Positions 11,476 through 42,420 of a stretch of DNA of 64,000 bases are shown in pieces; positions within the stretch are counted from its first letter, which is position 1; each line of letters begins with the position of its first letter. The position numbers were made by a program, and so were the translations under genes. The DNA lies in the NCBI GenBank assembly GCA_963809615.1, contig CAWEKR010000011.1:50951-114950 (forward strand), written 5' to 3'. The notes under the pieces were generated by a model, which saw nothing but the letters and a program-made list of their open reading frames with translations, searched no databases and had not been told where the DNA came from. Origin of the DNA: an uncultured Chloroflexia bacterium. Lineage in GTDB: Bacteria > Chloroflexota > Anaerolineae > Anaerolineales > UBA4823.

Positions 11476-11729
11476 TTGAATCTCCTTCCGTATAATTGAA
11501 TTAGTGTGCCGTAAAAACCCCAGAGAAATACCAGTATACACGTTCTAAAATTACAATAGCTTTGACAACAATTTCAAAGCACCTAACAAAACATTTATTG
11601 TACACCTATGTAATAAAGTTATTACCCCGCACACAGACTGCTTCATCCAATCTTAATAAACTTCTCGTCCAAGCAGGTGACGCCACACGCAACAAACACT
11701 GTTCGTATTCCATCGAAAAAACAAATGTC

Positions 11730-21742: not shown

Positions 21743-21771
21743 TTGACCTAGAACAAATGTTCTGTTATACT
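21743..21771 (+). promoter_or_regulatory. Near-consensus sigma70 promoter upstream of the 81-aa ORF
   Basis: TTGACC (21743-21748), a 17-nt spacer, then TATACT (21766-21771). It lies 82 nt upstream of ATG 21853. Confidence 0.7.
21750..21763. promoter_or_regulatory. LexA-type SOS box candidate (GAAC-N4-GTTC) inside the promoter spacer
   Basis: AGAACAAATGTTCT has 6+6 nt perfect inverted arms (AGAACA/TGTTCT). It matches the Gram-positive/Cheo-box core GAAC-N4-GTTC. Confidence 0.6.
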
Positions 21772-21852: not shown

Positions 21853-22098
21853 ATGAACATCGGAATGCTGTGGTATGACAATGATAACAAGGCTGACCTG
21901 GCGACTAAAATCCAGAAAGCAGTGAATTATTACCATTTGAAGTATGGGAAGGAACCCAACCTATGCCTGGTGCATCCAAGGACGTTGGGCACAACATCGT
22001 GGAAAAGTGTAGGTCTTGAGGTAAGAACCACACGCTCGGTACTACCGAACCATTTTTGGTTGGGGGTTAATAATAATGGAAACCCGGTTAAATCGTGA
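21853..22098 (+). CDS. Small hypothetical protein (81 aa), candidate SOS-regulated
   Basis: GGAGG SD 7 nt upstream. The sequence is MNIGMLWYDNDNKADLATKIQKAVNYYHLKYGKEPNLCLVHP.... It has no TM helix and no family I can name with certainty. Confidence 0.65.
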   Translation: MNIGMLWYDNDNKADLATKIQKAVNYYHLKYGKEPNLCLVHPRTLGTTSWKSVGLEVRTTRSVLPNHFWLGVNNNGNPVKS

Positions 22099-23092
22099 GC
22101 TCGGTCACCAGCAGCTCAAGGGCCAGCTCTGCCTCCATTTGACCAGTCTTAATCGCTTCATCAAGGTCCAGCAACCGGTGATAGATCATATCAAGGGATT
22201 TACCAGGAAAGTGTGGAGCGCTCTCCATTGCCAGTTTAGCGGGGTAGTAGGCAATTTTTAATGACCTCGGAATGTCATTGATAGATCCACGGTCGTCGAT
22301 CAATTCTTTGGCAATAATTAGCACCCGAATTTGATAAACGATACTCTGAAAGATCCTCCCCGGATCGTCCTCCTGCAGGCTCCTATGGAGCAGTGCTTGG
22401 GCTTTGCCTGGGTTGCGATCACGCAGGGCATTCACCAGCTCGAAATCACCGATTTTCGCAGTCAAGGGAGTGAGGTGCTCAACGTCATCGACATCCACCG
22501 GGCGTGAGAAGTTTACATATGTCAACAACTTGGTAACCTCCTGTGAAGCCAGGCGGGTATCATTACCAATTTGGTTGGAAAGTGAGACAGCTGCCTGGGG
22601 TGTGATTTGCCCACCAACCGATTTCACATACTCCTGGATCCACTTGACCATTTGTGCACCGCCCGGCTGGGGATGGTGGCGCAGGTAGACACGTTTCGAT
22701 TGCTCAGCCGATACAGCCCATTTTTCCAGCCAATTCAGCCTGCCATCTTTCCGTTCTTTTTCGCTGGTGAGGAACTCGTATTCGACCAAAATCAATTTTG
22801 AGCTTGGTTTATCTGCTGCCAGATAGGTTAAGAATTCCTGCTGATCTTTTTTGTCTTTCAGGCGGAAAGTTGGGTGGCTGAGAATGACCAGCCTTTTGGC
22901 AGCCAGGAAAGGTACCGTAGCAACTGCATCTTTGAGCTGGGATAAGGAGAAAGACCTGCCATCCAGGCGGGTGGTATTCATGCCGGCGATGCTGGCATCG
23001 CCGAGTCGGCTGGTTACCTTTTCAATGGATTCGTTGATTGCAAACTCATCGTCGCCATCAAATAGATAAATTTCGGGGGTCTCCTCTGCCAC
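22088..23092 (-). CDS. holA: DNA polymerase III delta subunit
   Basis: 334 aa with a typical HolA layout (YLFDGDDEF..., LSQLKDAVATVPFLAAKRLVIL, C-terminal helical domain). The GTG start immediately follows the TAG of the upstream ORF. Confidence 0.8.
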   Translation of the reverse strand: MAEETPEIYLFDGDDEFAINESIEKVTSRLGDASIAGMNTTRLDGRSFSLSQLKDAVATVPFLAAKRLVILSHPTFRLKDKKDQQEFLTYLAADKPSSKLILVEYEFLTSEKERKDGRLNWLEKWAVSAEQSKRVYLRHHPQPGGAQMVKWIQEYVKSVGGQITPQAAVSLSNQIGNDTRLASQEVTKLLTYVNFSRPVDVDDVEHLTPLTAKIGDFELVNALRDRNPGKAQALLHRSLQEDDPGRIFQSIVYQIRVLIIAKELIDDRGSINDIPRSLKIAYYPAKLAMESAPHFPGKSLDMIYHRLLDLDEAIKTGQMEAELALELLVTELTI

Positions 23093-35775: not shown

Positions 35776-36744
35776 TTAACCAGCCTGAACATCCATAGCT
35801 AAATCGATCTGATAACACACCAGCTGGCGTATCTCTTCAAACCCCAGCTCGCGGTACATTTTTAATACCTCCAGCTTATCTCCCCACGATTCCAGCTCCA
35901 CTATGGTCTGTCTCTGTTGATGAAGCCATCGGATGCCGGTCAGCACAAGGGCGCGGTATAGGTCTAAGCGGCGATGCTGGGGGACAACCCCTGGGGCGTC
36001 AATATAGCCGGTGGGAGTCCCGTTTTTCATGGTCCGCCCAGGTGAAGGTTCCGCCCGGCAGATCCCGACTCCCCTGCCTTTTTCGGAAAAAACCAGGAAA
36101 AGACCCTGTTGATCAAAGCCCGGCAACCGGGTGGATAGCTCTGCTTCACCAACCTGGTGGTGACCCCATAGAGGGATATAGCCCAGGCTCATTATCTGAC
36201 TCAGGATGGATACATTCTGGACCTCCGAATATGGCCGCATGGTATATCCAAAGGGCCAAATAACAGGGGGCAGACGGACATCCTGGGTGAGGCGCAGCTC
36301 TGTGTAAGCTCCCTGAGCAATGAAACCTCGTTTTTGTAGGAACCCAGGTGCATCAGGTTGGCTGGCGCTGGTATAGATTTGCATGGCGGTGGAATCAAGC
36401 TGGTGCGCCCGATCCATTACACTGGATAGCATGGTACTGCCAAGTCCATGGTGACGCCAATCGGGATGAATTACGATATTCGCCTCAGCCATTGTTGCTC
36501 CTGGGATGGCTTTCAGTAACGCTACACCAATCATAGTGGAAGGATTGTCTGGGTCATCCACAACCCAACGGTCCTTGAGCGGGTCGTGCCCAGGTAAACG
36601 CAATTCGTCCAGCAAATCCATCTCACTGAGCGCAGTCCCAGCATGGTCAACGGCTTCTACGACTGAGTAAAGCGATAAAAGTCGGGGGATATCCTGGTCT
36701 GGAAAGAATGAACGGATAAGCAACTGGTTCTGGTTCATGGTCAT
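35776..36744 (-). CDS. GNAT family N-acetyltransferase with two tandem GNAT domains (MshD-like architecture)
   Basis: 322 aa. The first domain has IVIHPDWRHHGLGSTMLSSV (acetyl-CoA P-loop-like R-x-x-G-x-G). The second domain has VVPQHRRLDLYRALVLTG. Confidence 0.7.
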   Translation of the reverse strand: MTMNQNQLLIRSFFPDQDIPRLLSLYSVVEAVDHAGTALSEMDLLDELRLPGHDPLKDRWVVDDPDNPSTMIGVALLKAIPGATMAEANIVIHPDWRHHGLGSTMLSSVMDRAHQLDSTAMQIYTSASQPDAPGFLQKRGFIAQGAYTELRLTQDVRLPPVIWPFGYTMRPYSEVQNVSILSQIMSLGYIPLWGHHQVGEAELSTRLPGFDQQGLFLVFSEKGRGVGICRAEPSPGRTMKNGTPTGYIDAPGVVPQHRRLDLYRALVLTGIRWLHQQRQTIVELESWGDKLEVLKMYRELGFEEIRQLVCYQIDLAMDVQAG

Positions 36745-36931
36745 GATAAAGCGAGCTTGCCTTATTAATAATAAAAATTCTGAACCTTGTGTTCCACACT
36801 ATATGCGAGGTGGTCAGTGACACGCTGCAGGAAAGCTAATAATTTTCCCTTGCTGATAAAGGCTAATTATTGTACCACCTTCCACAATCAGGCGATTTTA
36901 TCTACCCCATCACAAAAATTGGAAGGGAGGA

Positions 36932-37513
36932 CTACGATTCCGTTAGGGTAAGAATTTCCTGGTAGCGAAAACAATCTCTCGTATGATCGTTAACCATGCC
37001 CACCGCCTGCATGTGGGCATAACATATAGTAGGACCGACGAACTGAAAACCACGCTGAATAAGGTCTTTGCTAAATTGGCGCGAAATTTCCGTCTCCGCG
37101 GGGATCTCATGATCCGCGGTCCAGCAGTTAACGATGGGCTTGCCCCCTACGAACTGCCACATGTAGGCATCAAAGCTGCCGAACTGCTGCTGGATTTTTA
37201 AGAAGGACTGGGCATTACGGATGGCGGCGTTGATCTTAAGGCGGTTGCGGATAATGCCCGGGTTTGCCAGCAGCTCTGACAGCTTAAGCTCATCGTAAGC
37301 GGCGATTTTCTGGGGGTCAAATCCATCAAAGGCTGAACGATAATTGGGACGCTTTTTCAAAATCGTATACCAGCTTAAACCGGCTTGTGCGCCTTCTAAA
37401 ATGAGGAATTCGAATAGCAAGTGGTCATCGTGGACAGGAACCCCCCATTCCTGGTCGTGATACGCCTGGTAAAGCGGGTCATCCGTATTGGCCCAAAAGC
37501 AGCGGGTTGGCAT
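36932..37513 (-). CDS. tag: DNA-3-methyladenine glycosylase I
   Basis: RCFWANTDDPLYQAYHDQEWGVPVHDDHLLFEFLILEGAQAGLSW is the canonical Tag N-terminus. C-terminal Zn-site residues (CYAHMQAVGMVNDH) are present. Confidence 0.9.
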   Translation of the reverse strand: MPTRCFWANTDDPLYQAYHDQEWGVPVHDDHLLFEFLILEGAQAGLSWYTILKKRPNYRSAFDGFDPQKIAAYDELKLSELLANPGIIRNRLKINAAIRNAQSFLKIQQQFGSFDAYMWQFVGGKPIVNCWTADHEIPAETEISRQFSKDLIQRGFQFVGPTICYAHMQAVGMVNDHTRDCFRYQEILTLTES

Positions 37514-38195
37514 TAAGTTGTCTCCTTGCCATAGCGTTGTTCACTATTGATTGGCAGCGCGATGCGTAGCGATCATTCGACCAATTCTGCCCCGATAGCC
37601 GCTCGAGAAGAGGCCCAGCATACTGGAGCTCATGGGCGGCAAATGGATCATCAGACTCGGATAGCATTAGGATGGTGTAGTAAAACGGGAAGCCGTGCCA
37701 TTTCCCTTTTCCATCGCGGTGGCCCGCCAGCGCAGTCAAAAATTGGCTCAAATGCACTGCAGAGTCTTCATTATCGAGGGCAGCCAAATAGCGCATATAT
37801 GCCACCGTCAGTGATCTGCATTCTCCCTTGGAGCAAAACGTACTATAACACATCAAATTCATGCGCCGGTCGGATAATTGGATGGACCTGGCGGCAGCTG
37901 GATTATCCGGCGCAAGGAGGGCAAGCACTCTGGTAGTCTCGATGAGTGGCATGTGGCGGCAAGCAAACTCAGTACGAAGCATTTCGCCAGTGAAGAGCCT
38001 GGTTTGGCTGCGCGGTTCAGAGGCGTACGGGATGAAGAACCCGGAATTCGATCCTGTAAGTATCTGCCGTTTAATGAATAAGTGGGCAAGCTCATCCCGA
38101 AGCGCAGGCGCGATGGCCCTTTGAAAAAATAATACCTCCGTTGCAGAGTCAAGACTGGCGGTTAAACTGGTTGGATGGAAGATGATCATTTTCAC
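37479..38195 (-). CDS. Hypothetical protein
   Basis: 238-aa ORF between a GNAT gene and tag, overlapping the tag start by 35 nt. It appears helical and Cys-containing (CYSTFCSKGEC). I recognise no family. Confidence 0.5.
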   Translation of the reverse strand: MKMIIFHPTSLTASLDSATEVLFFQRAIAPALRDELAHLFIKRQILTGSNSGFFIPYASEPRSQTRLFTGEMLRTEFACRHMPLIETTRVLALLAPDNPAAARSIQLSDRRMNLMCYSTFCSKGECRSLTVAYMRYLAALDNEDSAVHLSQFLTALAGHRDGKGKWHGFPFYYTILMLSESDDPFAAHELQYAGPLLERLSGQNWSNDRYASRCQSIVNNAMARRQLNANPLLLGQYG

Positions 38196-38213
38196 CCCTC
38201 TCTCATTCCATGA

Positions 38214-38771
38214 TCAAAGAATATATCTCATGATTGGACGGGTCTCGGACCGCCTGGCGACTTCGCTAAATCCGGCTTGCTTGAATGCGGAATATAACCC
38301 GGTGTATAAGAAGACATCCGGGGCTTTACCGCCTTTTGGCTCAACAGGATACCCTTCAACGATACAAGCGCCTTTCGTCCTGGCATATTCTATGGAAGCC
38401 TGTAATAGCTTCACGGTTAATCCCGTCCGTCTCTGGCGGCGAGCGGTAAAGAAGCAGACCACTGACCAGACCGGCTGATTGTCCACGGGTTTAAGGATGC
38501 GCGAGCGCGCCAGGGTGGGGAACTCTTCACGCGGGGCGATGGAACACCAGCCGACAGGCTCATCCGCTTCATACGCCAGGATGCCCGGAATATTGCCCGA
38601 ATCCACCAGCGCTTTGATATTCCGCCTGTTTGGCTCACCATGCTGCTCGTTATATTGGGTAGGAGAAAGGCGCCAATACATGCACCAGCAGCCTCCACAG
38701 GCGCCACGCGGGCCAAATAATTTTTCAAAATCCGTCCAACGTTGTGGGGTAAGAGGGTGGAAAGTGATCAT
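38214..38771 (-). CDS. GNAT family N-acetyltransferase
   Basis: The N-terminal CGGCWCMYWR motif and the core VVCFFTARRQRRTGLTVKLLQASIEYA (Q/RxxGxG/A-like) are typical of a widespread single-domain GNAT subfamily. Confidence 0.75.
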   Translation of the reverse strand: MITFHPLTPQRWTDFEKLFGPRGACGGCWCMYWRLSPTQYNEQHGEPNRRNIKALVDSGNIPGILAYEADEPVGWCSIAPREEFPTLARSRILKPVDNQPVWSVVCFFTARRQRRTGLTVKLLQASIEYARTKGACIVEGYPVEPKGGKAPDVFLYTGLYSAFKQAGFSEVARRSETRPIMRYIL

Positions 38772-38785
38772 TAATAGTGTTCCTC

Positions 38786-38809
38786 AAAAAAACGAATCGG
38801 TTCGATTCA
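38786..38809 (-). terminator. Small Rho-independent terminator candidate right after the acidic-protein gene
   Basis: The minus strand reads TGAATCG-AAC-CGATTCG followed by seven T. It starts 3 nt after stop codon 38813-38815. The stem is short (6-7 bp). Confidence 0.45.
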
Positions 38810-38812
38810 AAC

Positions 38813-39706
38813 TCAGGTGAGGTCGAATTCGAGGTATCCCCGACCCTGTTCAGCCTGGTATGCCGTAGTATTGGATGGCGAGGTAGACTGGATCTCCGAG
38901 GGCAAAGTCCGAGAATCAGGAGTGGAGTCAACGGGAGAATAAGAATTTAGACCCTTGAGATCCTCGTCATCCCCAAAGTCATCCTCGTCATCATCATCAT
39001 CTTCATCCCAATCGGATTCGTAATCGTCCTCGTCGTCATCATCCTCGTCATCGTTGTCATCATCCTCTTCTTTATCCGGCTCTGGAATAGCTTCTTCTCC
39101 TTCGAAATCCTCATCGCTCCCAAGATCATCATCATTTTCATCGACCTCAACAGCGGGCACGTCATTCTTATCCTCATCATCAAGGTCGTCTTCATCGTCA
39201 GGCTCATCGCCGTTACTGCCGTCTTCTTCAACCAGGTCTTCATCCTCATCTAAATCGTCTTCATCATCATCAGGATCACCCCCGTTCACCGCGTTAAAGG
39301 TGTTATTGGTTGGAACCAGAGCTACACGTTGGGATGGAAGGAGGTCAAATTTTTCACATTGCCCGATAGAATCACCTTGTGGGATGCGGTAAGAACTGAT
39401 GAACTGAGATGACCCGGTTTGAAGCGGTCGTGCGCTGCGGTCATCGTAAGTACCAGTCTGCACCAGGGCTAGCGCAGTGAGGGTAGTTATTTTTACCACT
39501 AACTGAGAAAACAGGTCACCTGCCGGAGTGGAGCACTCGTTTTGCGGAGTTGGGACGATTGAGGAGAATAAATCCGCTTGGGTGAGTGTGAACATTGTAG
39601 AAGCAGGGTCGGGAGTATTGTTGGAGAGACCAAATAATCCGGCGAAATTGAGGCGTGCCTTGCCAAGGATGCGAAGATGAGGGTTTAAGCGATAATTTGT
39701 CACCAT
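38813..39706 (-). CDS. Hyper-acidic hypothetical protein (central Asp/Glu tract)
   Basis: 297-aa ORF with a non-acidic N-terminal ~140 aa. A ~111-aa tract follows in which I count 72 D/E (GGDPDDDEDDLDEDEDLVEEDG...DWDEDDDDDEDDFGDDEDLKG). The tail is Ser/Thr/Pro-rich. I recognise no family. Confidence 0.6.
   Translation of the reverse strand: MVTNYRLNPHLRILGKARLNFAGLFGLSNNTPDPASTMFTLTQADLFSSIVPTPQNECSTPAGDLFSQLVVKITTLTALALVQTGTYDDRSARPLQTGSSQFISSYRIPQGDSIGQCEKFDLLPSQRVALVPTNNTFNAVNGGDPDDDEDDLDEDEDLVEEDGSNGDEPDDEDDLDDEDKNDVPAVEVDENDDDLGSDEDFEGEEAIPEPDKEEDDDNDDEDDDDEDDYESDWDEDDDDDEDDFGDDEDLKGLNSYSPVDSTPDSRTLPSEIQSTSPSNTTAYQAEQGRGYLEFDLT
38951..39283 (-). repeat. Low-complexity GAT/GAC/GAA/GAG codon tract encoding the poly-acidic region
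   Basis: Read directly: a long run of gat/gac/gag/gaa codons on the minus strand. It generates the Ser-rich shadow ORF 39054..39392 on the plus strand. Confidence 0.85.
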
Positions 39707-39807
39707 TGCCTAACTTTCGTTTTCACATGCGGAAGGTCTTCCCAGATCAATGTAGTATAGCCAGGTAAAATCACACATACAGTCGATCGAAATATTTTCG
39801 TAATCGA

Positions 39808-40203
39808 TCAAACCTGTGTGGATGGACCTTCCCATGAATATATTATTAAGTCGATCCGATCGCGGTCATCAAAAACCACTCCCTCAGATTCGAGCAGCTC
39901 GCGTTGTTGAGAACCACCTACCCCAGGGCGAAGGCTGACTTTACCTTGAGAGTTGATGACGCGCTGCCATGGGACGTCCTGTGGGCAATTTGCCATAGCA
40001 CCACCAACCCAGCGAGCGCCGAATGACAGGTACGATTTTGGATCCATCCCCGGAGGTGGAGGTAGAAAAGCAGCAATTCGACCATAGGTGGAGACCTTAC
40101 CAGCAGGAATCTGGCGAACAAGCGCCCACACGCTGTGATTGAATTCATCCCGTCTGGGTGGTGAAATGTAACGTTGAGCTGCATGAATGGCTGCAGGAGC
40201 CAT
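39808..40203 (-). CDS. atl: Alkyltransferase-like (ATL) protein: MGMT fold lacking the catalytic cysteine
   Basis: MGMT DNA-binding domain (VWALVRQIPAGKVSTYGRIA...ARWVGGAMANCP). PWQRV (DVPWQRVIN) replaces the catalytic PCHRV. The start is set at ATG 40203 (AAGGA 9 nt upstream); the track start is 40212. Confidence 0.8.
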   Translation of the reverse strand: MAPAAIHAAQRYISPPRRDEFNHSVWALVRQIPAGKVSTYGRIAAFLPPPPGMDPKSYLSFGARWVGGAMANCPQDVPWQRVINSQGKVSLRPGVGGSQQRELLESEGVVFDDRDRIDLIIYSWEGPSTQV

Positions 40204-40231
40204 AATTCCCATCCTTTTTTACGTAGTAACA

Positions 40232-40260
40232 AATATACCAGAACGCATGTTCTAGGTCAA
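40232..40260 (-). promoter_or_regulatory. Near-consensus sigma70 promoter upstream of the ATL gene
   Basis: The minus strand reads TTGACC (40260-40255), a 17-nt spacer, then TATATT (40237-40232). It matches the promoter at 21743..21771 at 24 of 29 positions. Confidence 0.7.
40240..40253. promoter_or_regulatory. LexA-type SOS box candidate (GAAC-N4-GTTC) inside the promoter spacer
   Basis: AGAACGCATGTTCT on the plus strand, with 5+5 nt perfect inverted arms AGAAC/GTTCT. Its position within the spacer is the same as the box at 21750..21763. Confidence 0.6.
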
Positions 40261-40490
40261 GTGGTTAATTGCTTTTCTAATCTTAGTAATATGGATTGAG
40301 GTAAATGATCACCTTAATCCAGGCTAAACCATTAGATGTCTCAAGTATAGAATGGATGCACCTGTTATTATATGAATAATGTACGTTGAAATACATAATA
40401 ATGTTCACCCCTGTCTGGGTGACCGACCATGCTATATCGATTACAATATGGTTTGTCCGACAACATTGACAGAGCTCAGAGATCAACAAC

Positions 40491-41837
40491 ATGGCGATTG
40501 ACACACCGTCCAACTACCGCAACCTTGTGATTTACGAAATATATGTGCGTAACCATGGAATAAGCGGCACATTTTTAGATGTGGAGAGGGATTTGCCCCG
40601 CCTGCACACGCTAGGGGTGGACATACTTTGGTTCATGCCGATCCACCCGATCGGAATGGTGAATAAAAAGGGGAGTATGGGATGCCCGTATTCGGTCAGA
40701 GATTACCGGGAGGTGAACCCGGAATACGGCACGATAGAAGACTTCAGGCGGTTGGTCAGGCTGGTGCATGAGATGGGAATGAAGGTGATAATCGATGTGG
40801 TATATAACCACAGCTCCCATGATTCGGTGCTGGTGAAGGAGCACCCGGATTACTTTCACCAGGATGAGCAGGGCAACCCGGTGACAACGGTATCCGAATG
40901 GACTGACGTCATCGATTTGAACTACTCAAATGCAGCGCTAAGCGATTACCTGATCGACACGCTGAAAATCTGGGTGGAGCTCGGTGTGGATGGATTCCGC
41001 TGTGACGTGGCATCACTGGTGCCCCAGGAATTTTGGCTGCGAGCGCGAAAGGAAGTAGCAAAGGCGGGACCAGGGGTGGTCTGGTTGGCAGAGTCGGTAC
41101 ATGCCAGTTTTGTGGGCTCCAGGAGGTCTAATGGACTGACCGGGCTATCAGATGGCGAGCTATATGCCGCGTTCGACTTTACTTATGATTATGATATTTG
41201 GCCCATCTGGCAGCTTGCAGTGCAGGGAAAAGTACCGGTACGAAGGTATATCGAGATGCTGCGTTACCAGGAATGCATCTATCCGGAGACGTATGTGAAG
41301 ATGCGATGCGTGGAAAACCATGACCAGGCACGCATCATGCGGCTGGCTCCCAGCCGATCGCAGGCAATGGCATGGACAGCATTTGAGGCATTTAATAAAG
41401 GACCTTTCCTGATCTATGGCGGGCAGGAGTCGGGCACAAAGCACACGCCTTCGCTATTCGAGATAGACAAGGTGGAATGGGGGGATTACTCCCTTCAGCC
41501 GTTCATCACCAGGCTGGCGAAGCTTAAAAAAGACCCGGCTCAGGTTGAAGGCAAGTTTGGGGTGATCCAGGCGGATCCAGCTATCCAGGCGGTGTGGGAA
41601 TACCCGGAAAAGAACTTATATGGGATATTTAATACAAGTGGGAAGTCTGGCTACATCATGGTCAGCCTGCCGGACGGGACTTACCGTGATCTCCTGAACG
41701 ATGGGCAAGTGACGGTGAGAGGGGGTAAGATGCTGCTTCCGGAAGCTGCAGCGATCGTACGATACCCACAAAAAGTCGTCCTCCGCCCGGCGTATAGCGA
41801 GCTGCTGGATTACACTGTCAGTGGGATCAACGCCTGA
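40491..41837 (+). CDS. GH13 alpha-amylase-family glycoside hydrolase
   Basis: Conserved GH13 regions: DVVYNHS, GFRCDVASLVP (nucleophile Asp), WLAESVH (acid/base Glu) and VENHDQ. No signal peptide. Confidence 0.85.
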   Translation: MAIDTPSNYRNLVIYEIYVRNHGISGTFLDVERDLPRLHTLGVDILWFMPIHPIGMVNKKGSMGCPYSVRDYREVNPEYGTIEDFRRLVRLVHEMGMKVIIDVVYNHSSHDSVLVKEHPDYFHQDEQGNPVTTVSEWTDVIDLNYSNAALSDYLIDTLKIWVELGVDGFRCDVASLVPQEFWLRARKEVAKAGPGVVWLAESVHASFVGSRRSNGLTGLSDGELYAAFDFTYDYDIWPIWQLAVQGKVPVRRYIEMLRYQECIYPETYVKMRCVENHDQARIMRLAPSRSQAMAWTAFEAFNKGPFLIYGGQESGTKHTPSLFEIDKVEWGDYSLQPFITRLAKLKKDPAQVEGKFGVIQADPAIQAVWEYPEKNLYGIFNTSGKSGYIMVSLPDGTYRDLLNDGQVTVRGGKMLLPEAAAIVRYPQKVVLRPAYSELLDYTVSGINA

Positions 41838-41838
41838 C

Positions 41839-42420
41839 TTATTCTTTGCCACCATGCAGACGTAGGATTTCGATCAACCCGGTTTGATTTTTCTCAATTG
41901 CCATAGCCAGGGGTGTCTTACCATCAAATTTTGGATTTGGGTCGACACCTCGATCAAGAAGCCACACAGCCATTTTGGGCTGGTTGAACATGACTGCAGC
42001 GTGAAGCGGTGTTATCCCGGTAGGAGAGGTCGCATTGGGGTCAGCTCCGTGTTGGAATAGATATTCTGCCACCTCAACCCTGGCATGGATGACGGGGAAA
42101 TATAACAAGGGGATGCCATGAGCGCCGCGGGCGTTTATCAGGTTGGGATCTTCCAAAAGAAAATCATTCATGCAGTCCAAATTCCCTAGCATGGCAGCGG
42201 TACAGATATCGTAATCGGCACCATGATCGATCAAGTAATTAACGATCTCCACCTGCCCAGTCTGGGCGGCAGCCTGAACTGCAGTTTCATCCCAGATGGC
42301 GGCCGAGCTTATCATTGATGGGTATTTTCCGAGCAGATCCCTGACCAATGAGAGGTTGCCATGGGCGTTACCGACAAACTGGTCAATGGTCTCTTGTGTT
42401 GGGGTTATGGTTACAGCCAT
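41839..42420 (-). CDS. Ankyrin-repeat protein
   Basis: Several 33-aa ANK repeats (GITPLHAAVMFNQPKMAVWLLDRGVDPN, GKTPLAMAIEKNQTGLIEILRLHG). Confidence 0.85.
   Translation of the reverse strand: MAVTITPTQETIDQFVGNAHGNLSLVRDLLGKYPSMISSAAIWDETAVQAAAQTGQVEIVNYLIDHGADYDICTAAMLGNLDCMNDFLLEDPNLINARGAHGIPLLYFPVIHARVEVAEYLFQHGADPNATSPTGITPLHAAVMFNQPKMAVWLLDRGVDPNPKFDGKTPLAMAIEKNQTGLIEILRLHGGKE

Follow-up and report, generated by a model that had tools for sequence, protein, structure and literature searches.

The palindrome GAAC-N4-GTTC is the LexA motif of the Firmicutes and Actinobacteria, and variations of it occur in the Cyanobacteria and Chloroflexi (PMC4951493); the Chloroflexi variation is attributed, as cited in that source, to the work of Fernandez de Henestrosa (2002) on the LexA of Dehalococcoides. 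The present analysis concerns a stretch of 64,000 nucleotides from an uncultured Chloroflexia bacterium of the Anaerolineales (assembly GCA_963809615.1, contig CAWEKR010000011.1, positions 50,951 to 114,950), referred to below as the window, in which a dyad of this class (40240-40253) lies inside the promoter of a gene for an alkyltransferase-like (ATL) protein (39808-40203, minus strand). The ATL proteins Atl1, eATL and TTHA1564 bind O6-alkylguanine and pass it on to nucleotide excision repair. According to the Escherichia coli paradigm, alkylation repair is controlled by Ada and is separate from the SOS response; the SOS (LexA) regulons of different phyla vary widely in content, and the regulation of bacterial ATL proteins has, to our knowledge, been little studied. 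From the evidence presented below, it is very probable that LexA represses the ATL promoter by occlusion and that DNA damage would derepress ATL and perhaps also the genes of a downstream operon, the last of which encodes Tag, a 3-methyladenine DNA glycosylase.

The ATL gene, its promoter and its predicted operator

Read on the minus strand from 40260 to 40232, the sequence upstream of ATL is TTGACC-TAGAACATGCGTTCTGG-TATATT, with a spacer of 17 nt that holds AGAAC-N4-GTTCT; this corresponds exactly to the promoter, the spacer length and the inverted repeat put forward in a preliminary description of the stretch. The -35 hexamer TTGACC was read at 40255-40260 and the spacer TAGAACATGCGTTCTGG at 40238-40254, both on the minus strand. 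Direct reading and a motif search placed the predicted LexA operator, AGAACATGCGTTCT, at 40240-40253; it is the perfect dyad AGAAC-ATGC-GTTCT, and together with its flanks (TAGAAC...GTTCTGG) it takes up the complete spacer. The end of the right arm, GTTCTG, supplies the TG (40240-40239) of an extended -10 element on the minus strand, which continues after one base with TATATT (40237-40232). A promoter scan recovered the same element, and ranked it as the top promoter-like site in 36500-41000 (10/12 matches, plus the TG). The operator is positioned 28 nt 5' of the ATL ATG and overlaps the TTGACC/TATATT promoter, in an orientation and at a distance that fit. As judged from its hexamers and spacing, the element is a sigma-70-type promoter with the extended -10 TGgTATATT, and the block is kept in the orthologues.

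The longest open reading frame (ORF) here extends from 40212 to 39808 on the minus strand and encodes the motif PWQRV. A Shine-Dalgarno sequence, AAGGATGG (40209-40216, minus strand), was located 5 nt before a second ATG at 40203. When 10 upstream regions were aligned, AAGG was invariant and AAGGAnGG nearly so, while the TTGAC of the -35 hexamer was unchanged in nine of them. Because the conserved Shine-Dalgarno stands ahead of the second ATG in every orthologue, whereas the ATG at 40212 falls within it and is not conserved, the true start is almost certainly at 40203; this corrects the start at 40212 and predicts a protein of 131 aa.

The identity of the product was examined through Pfam, PDB matches and alignment. 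Its sole Pfam domain was PF01035, the MGMT DNA-binding domain (residues 20-109, E = 2.8e-19), with no N-terminal AGT domain, and the NCBIfam Ogt models gave 18-28 bits against cut-offs of 46-192. The only PDB matches with E < 0.001 were 2kif/2kim (7e-16) and Atl1 of Schizosaccharomyces pombe, 3gva (8e-13); 2kif was deposited under the name O6-methylguanine-DNA methyltransferase, and 2kif/2kim are taken here to be the ATL of Vibrio parahaemolyticus (vpAtl). The segment VPWQRVINSQGKVS aligned to LPWFRVINSQGKIS and VPWHRVINSRGTIS, its Trp standing opposite the Trp of vpAtl and Atl1, so that the window protein has PWQRV instead of PCHRV. The lesion-binding residues of ATLs are the Tyr of an (S/T)TYG segment and an Arg finger; the Tyr of STYG was retained here, and the Arg of GARWVG was aligned with the YARQVG/YARHVG segments of Atl1 and vpAtl. 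Homologues numbered 3310, and the best 120 of these 3310 were 72-85% identical and came, where a source name was given, from an 'Anaerolineales bacterium' or a 'Chloroflexi bacterium'. The ATL identity proposed in the preliminary description was borne out by the lone MGMT C-terminal domain, the PWQRV motif and the nearest structures, vpAtl and Atl1; on these features the product of 39808-40203 is classed as an ATL.

Whether such a promoter could arise by accident depends on how loosely the element is defined. The loose form GAAC-N4-GTTC was observed twice in the window against 0.81 expected, which is not significant alone, and this lack of enrichment would suit a coincidence, that is, a constitutive promoter with an accidentally palindromic spacer. 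The 14-mer AGAAC-N4-GTTCT, however, was also observed twice, against 0.07 expected, and none of 100 shuffles reached this count. The 29-nt composite TTGACCTAGAAC-N4-GTTCTGnTATAnT was observed twice, even with 3 mismatches, against 0.00 expected, and both 14-mer copies sit within this identical 29-nt promoter design. Among matches in the window with up to two mismatches, the two perfect boxes alone had an intergenic promoter context; the remainder of these further boxes were genic and likely due to chance, or a half-site at 11533. Chance was excluded because the 14-mer and 29-mer counts so exceed expectation.

Conservation pointed in the same direction. A sample of ATL loci was gathered by protein similarity, and not by motif, comprising nine genome loci, three independent loci and the window itself (13 in total). 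The nine genome loci were obtained with a single-protein query, from metagenome-assembled genomes labelled Anaerolineae, Anaerolineales, Anaerolineaceae or 'uncultured Chloroflexia'. The block of promoter and operator was intact in 11 of the 13, window counted. Within the genome loci, seven of nine contained TTGACnTAGAACATGCGTTC inside a 17-nt spacer, approximately 45 nt before the ATG; TTGACnTAGAAC-N4-GTTC was found in a 17-nt spacer in the same proportion (7/9) and in all three of the further independent loci. The 17-mer of the window, TAGAACATGCGTTCTGG, was exact in six of the nine genome loci, and L006 had one substitution just outside the GAAC/GTTC core. In the upstream alignment, the conserved columns were those of the block and the Shine-Dalgarno only; mean column identity was 56% and the flanks were unalignable. 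Against this sharp footprint, and with the element common to the lexA and recA promoters described below, the probability of mere coincidence is close to nil, and for practical purposes it is already refuted.

The pattern of variation within the operator was itself informative. The three further independent orthologues, retrieved by an exact-protein look-up, all had the box, with the centre ATGC in L143/L144 and ATTA in L141 and L142. Divergent ATLs of approximately 62-64% identity (L017, L090, L113) kept the arms of the operator while its centre varied, and the same was observed for L019, L062, L094, L100, L141 and L142; the centres at divergent ATL loci were ATTC, ATCC, ATTA, AAAT, ATAC and AAAC. 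Conserved arms around a free centre are expected if the arms are the contacts of a dimer that recognizes the dyad.

A palindrome might also act as an RNA or DNA hairpin, for instance as a terminator of upstream transcription, and a terminator scan did flag CTAGAACATGCGTTCTGG followed by TATATTTGTT (7 pairs, 3 of them G-C). Yet no gene on the same strand ends just upstream, the neighbour being a divergent amylase, and the stem, a weak one, precedes the predicted transcription start and would hence be absent from the ATL mRNA. The element is, moreover, always placed precisely between the -35 and the -10. The hairpin or terminator was rejected on account of its weak stem, the lack of an upstream gene end and the fixed placement between -35 and -10, and is regarded as highly improbable.

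Two further observations concern the intergenic region. In L009 (9654-9975), a 56-nt segment with the ATL promoter and operator was exactly duplicated, the copies lying 205 bp apart and the palindrome GAGTAATTACTC recurring at their flanks; in L001, from which the promoter block is missing, GGTGAGTAATTAC stands where that block starts in L009. This arrangement suggests deletion or recombination at the short repeats of these two loci. Secondly, another short conserved block was present at 40332-40345 (minus strand CTTGAGACATCTAA), in the region between ATL and the divergent alpha-amylase gene (40491-41837, plus strand). It was common to L002, L003, L006 and L008 and may belong to the amylase gene.

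The promoter design at SOS genes of related Chloroflexi

Metagenome contigs were scanned with the pattern TTGACNTAGAACNNHNGTTCTG, which demanded the promoter design including the -35 junction and left the -10 unspecified; the H in the pattern excludes the ATL centre ATGC, and so kept ATL promoters from swamping the result. At least 120 loci were returned, and all counts from the scan are counts among the matches listed. In 51 of the 120 listed loci the hexamer at the 17-nt spacing was TATAAT, and most others had a TAnnnT variant there. Since a -10 appeared although it was absent from the pattern, the loci were interpreted as real promoters.

The genes downstream of these promoters were clustered and representatives were run against Pfam. 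LexA itself (PF01726 and PF00717) was found at no fewer than 21 loci and RecA (PF00154) at a minimum of three, while UvrB (PF17757, PF12344) and a Y-family (IMS) polymerase (PF00817) were each found at one locus or more. An FtsK/SpoIIIE-like ATPase (PF01580, PF17854) followed the promoter at 16 loci or more, and ATL at seven or more; the seven ATLs listed all had PWQRV and were approximately 62-76% identical to the window protein. Two families had no Pfam match, one of 81 aa (at least 14 loci) and one rich in Cys (at least six: L016, L026, L034, L067, L074, L120). The list was completed by a DUF6504-like small protein (PF20114; at least four loci: L011, L048, L070, L089) and a GyrI-like protein (PF06445; at least three: L029, L042, L076), a family that recalls the E. 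coli SOS gene sbmC/gyrI.

The design TTGACnTAGAAC-N4-GTTCTGnTATAAT was thus identical ahead of lexA, recA, uvrB and the gene for the Y-family polymerase in related metagenome contigs; where source names were given for the LexA homologues, these were 'Chloroflexi bacterium' and 'Anaerolineae bacterium'. The dyad had been ascribed beforehand to the GAAC-N4-GTTC class of LexA operators, and this ascription agrees both with the motif class as published (PMC4951493) and with the design shared by lexA, recA and uvrB of the relatives.

The lexA genes themselves, when gathered by protein, had two or three boxes each. The first box lay in the promoter spacer, TTGACATAGAACGCATGTTCTGGTATAAT, and its 14-nt core equals that of the second box read on the other strand. 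The second was positioned just past the -10, and in L130 it was CTAGAACATGCGTTCTGG, the very 18-mer of the window ATL operator. A third box accompanied the tandem upstream lexA paralogue. The LexA proteins of the relatives, with a DNA-binding and an S24 domain (PF01726 and PF00717), are potentially cleavable: both residues of the self-cleavage dyad, Ser (GDSM) and Lys (TLKRF), were retained in all copies, and at each tandem-lexA locus examined at least one paralogue had the cleavage site AAGEP. In the alignment of cleavage sites, the LexA sequences of E. coli and Bacillus subtilis served as guides only.

An SOS cluster with three LexA boxes was conserved in related Chloroflexi contigs (L130-L136, L145-L152). 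It contained a lexA paralogue (213-249 aa), a lexA (203-208 aa), the FtsK/SpoIIIE-like ATPase and a protein of approximately 116-121 aa, with a further protein of approximately 148 aa in most loci.

Such duplication raises the question of whether the dyad might be the operator of a regulator that does not respond to damage, either a repurposed or non-cleavable second LexA-like paralogue or an unrelated dimeric helix-turn-helix protein, in which case ATL would be regulated, but not by damage. The LexA of Synechocystis is a precedent for a LexA put to other use or non-cleavable. The relatives examined had tandem LexA paralogues, some members of one paralogue group had AASAEP instead of the Ala-Gly site, and for many of the genes that bear the design (the 81-aa, Cys-rich and DUF6504-like families) no role in repair is known. 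These features would suit another regulator. However, the same design was found at the core SOS set of lexA, recA, uvrB and the Y-family polymerase, the Ser/Lys dyad was intact in every LexA copy, and each tandem-lexA locus examined had a canonical AAGEP copy; the motif, too, fits the LexA class of the Firmicutes and Actinobacteria, with its variations in the Chloroflexi (PMC4951493). Another regulator was considered unlikely for these reasons, and damage-responsive repression by LexA remained the preferred interpretation.

Several observations nevertheless weigh against LexA control of ATL. The link to LexA rests on related Chloroflexi contigs and not on the window's own genome, since neither the window nor the ATL loci contain lexA, recA or uvrB: searches by tblastn with LexA, RecA, UvrB and the Y-family polymerase against the window, the ATL loci and the loci of the 81-aa ORF gave no match, and neither did the FtsK-like, Cys-rich, GyrI-like and DUF6504-like proteins against the same sequences. 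Exact-protein look-ups with the ATL, in forms of 131 and 134 aa, and with the 81-aa ORF gave no match either. All four distinct lexA loci gathered by protein had two tandem LexA paralogues. In part of the 203-aa paralogue group, AASAEP replaces the canonical Ala-Gly site, which leaves the cleavability of these copies uncertain; in the loci examined, the paralogue adjacent to an AASAEP copy kept AAGEP. Two of the 13 ATL loci were without an intact box (the block was absent from L001, and L002 had lost 1 nt of the left arm), so that some strains can dispense with operator control, unless these two assemblies are imperfect. The scan, with its demand for a -35 junction, misses SOS genes with other promoter designs, and its gene list is not a complete regulon. 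Finally, LexA binding, induction by damage and the transcription start are predictions from sequence.

With these qualifications, the control of ATL by LexA may be envisaged as follows. In the undamaged cell, a LexA dimer would occupy AGAACATGCGTTCT (40240-40253) between the -35 and the -10, overlapping the contacts of RNA polymerase on both sides and keeping polymerase off the promoter; repression by occlusion is suggested by the span of the operator across the whole spacer and by the TG that its right arm contributes to the extended -10. On DNA damage, RecA filaments would trigger the self-cleavage of LexA and the promoter would be derepressed. The freed promoter, presumably a strong one, would fire from approximately 40224-40227, in keeping with the usual start some 7 nt past a -10, with a leader of roughly 21-24 nt, and ATL would be expressed, possibly with the downstream genes on the same strand as far as Tag. 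Without an active-site cysteine, the ATL protein would bind O6-alkylguanine and hand it over to nucleotide excision repair, by analogy with Atl1, eATL and TTHA1564; uvrB, a gene of that pathway, has the same operator in a relative and might be induced alongside. We infer repression by occlusion, the extent of the operon and the biochemical activity of the ATL. Well supported in silico, ATL looks like an unsurprising member of the DNA-damage regulon of this group.

The twin promoter and the genes downstream of ATL

The second perfect box in the window belongs to a twin SOS promoter, TTGACC-TAGAACAAATGTTCTGT-TATACT (21743-21771, plus strand; operator 21750-21763), which is located 81 nt upstream of an ORF of 81 aa (21853-22098, plus strand). 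The product begins MNIGMLWYDNDNK and is a predicted second LexA target. The preliminary description had already noted a box at 21750, and this proved to be a genuine twin, with the same 29-nt design; when orthologues of the 81-aa ORF were gathered by protein, the promoter was conserved ahead of them.

The 81-aa family, MNIGMLW(F/Y)DNDNK..., had 206 homologues, all of them without a name or called 'hypothetical', with some sources labelled Chloroflexi or Anaerolineales; Pfam and NCBIfam gave no match for the window ORF. Every copy inspected stood behind a LexA-box promoter (4 independent loci, 6 contigs, and at least 14 loci of the scan; relatives L012, L027, L137-L140), and the centre of the operator was nearly always AAAT. 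On this distribution the family is a candidate new SOS effector. At its 3' end, the ORF overlaps the convergent holA gene, for the delta subunit of DNA polymerase III (22088-23092, minus strand; overlap 22088-22098). The convergence with holA was seen at each locus inspected (the window and L137-L140), with a 3' overlap of approximately 11-35 nt. It is a speculative suggestion that SOS-induced read-through of the 81-aa gene would be antisense to holA.

Downstream of ATL, four genes follow on the same strand (minus). The first is an acidic, low-complexity ORF of 297 aa (38813-39706), then a GNAT protein identified by Pfam (38214-38771), a 238-aa protein between GNAT and Tag (37479-38195), which overlaps Tag by 35 nt, and Tag itself (36932-37513; PF03352, E = 3.5e-83). 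The order ATL...GNAT...Tag was kept in relatives with contigs of sufficient length, and L141 and L142 had no gap longer than 104 nt between any of the genes that run from ATL to Tag. Between ATL and Tag no convincing terminator was detected, the one weak candidate, at 38793-38809 just past the acidic ORF, being a hairpin of 6 bp with U7 behind it; the folding z-scores in this check were -1.3 and +0.8. ATL and the same-strand genes of 36932-39706 may be co-transcribed, and an SOS operon from ATL to Tag is plausible from this gene order and spacing.

Some features of the neighbourhood were more variable. The C-terminal half of the 297-aa ORF was extremely acidic, rich in Asp and Glu, and only its N-terminal part was conserved, weakly (26-34% identity), in some relatives; L141 and L142 had an alpha/beta hydrolase and other genes in its place. 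An ankyrin-repeat gene (41839-42420, minus strand), two genes upstream of ATL, had no box upstream of it in the window. Its homologue in L086 stood behind a LexA-box promoter.

A broader proposition is that the LexA regulon of the Anaerolineae took in a whole alkylation-damage operon, with one SOS promoter serving ATL, the variable genes, GNAT and Tag, and that the promoter design also marks unstudied SOS genes. This can be advanced tentatively, as a possibility somewhat short of even. If true, alkylation sensing and repair would be switched on by a general signal of damage, rather than by an adaptive response of the Ada type, and the alkylation response would be coupled to nucleotide excision repair through co-induced uvrB. 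The unstudied, conserved SOS genes marked by the same design would be the 81-aa family, the Cys-rich family, the FtsK-like ATPase by lexA and the tandem LexA paralogues.

Relation to known LexA and ATL systems

The operator class, its presence in the Chloroflexi and the ATL family were already known; what appears to be new is an ATL behind a predicted LexA operator. The preliminary description had considered a link between LexA and ATL to be new, and this accords with the literature, where a search that combined ATLs or alkyltransferases with LexA or SOS brought up neither an ATL within a LexA regulon nor LexA control of any ATL; a search on LexA in Anaerolineae, Chloroflexi or Chloroflexota found no regulon study. 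A finding of this kind is hardly surprising, because LexA regulons vary between phyla and the motif class has already been reported for the Chloroflexi. The conservation of the operator ahead of ATL in many Anaerolineae does predict that damage induces ATL and that ATL is regulated together with nucleotide excision repair, into which it presumably feeds. The 29-nt signature TTGACnTAGAAC-N4-GTTCTGnTATAAT is easily searchable, and allows the SOS regulon of a phylum with few cultured members to be read in part from metagenomes; it also exposes several conserved genes without an assigned function.

Compared with other GAAC-N4-GTTC LexA systems, the relatives of the window had the same core regulon, with lexA autoregulation, recA, uvrB and a translesion polymerase. 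The ATL operator resembles the Cheo box of B. subtilis (CGAAC-N4-GTTCG) and the LexA sites of Mycobacterium and Dehalococcoides ethenogenes in its dyad, its spacing and its overlap with the promoter. It differs from the Cheo box in its flanks, which are A...T (AGAAC/GTTCT, usually TAGAAC/GTTCTG) rather than C...G. The LexA boxes of B. subtilis and Mycobacterium occur at varied positions, whereas in the promoters captured here, by a scan that required the -35 junction, the operator exactly fills the 17-nt spacer and its right arm gives the TG of the extended -10. An extension of the LexA regulon to alkylation damage has a likely counterpart in B. subtilis yhaZ, which encodes an AlkD-like glycosylase and is a member of the LexA regulon; the window system would instead bring in an ATL sensor, possibly with Tag.

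The window ATL is likewise close to its described relatives. It consists of a single MGMT C-terminal domain, like Atl1, eATL (YbaZ) of E. coli, TTHA1564 of Thermus thermophilus and vpAtl, and the acceptor Cys, for which ATLs typically have Trp or Ala, is replaced by Trp (PWQRV), as in the known ATLs (PWHRV, PWFRV). Relative to vpAtl and Atl1 it has an extra insert of approximately 10 residues, PPPPGMDPKSYLSF, ahead of the Arg. Its gene, unlike those of the known ATLs, follows a predicted LexA operator and precedes Tag.

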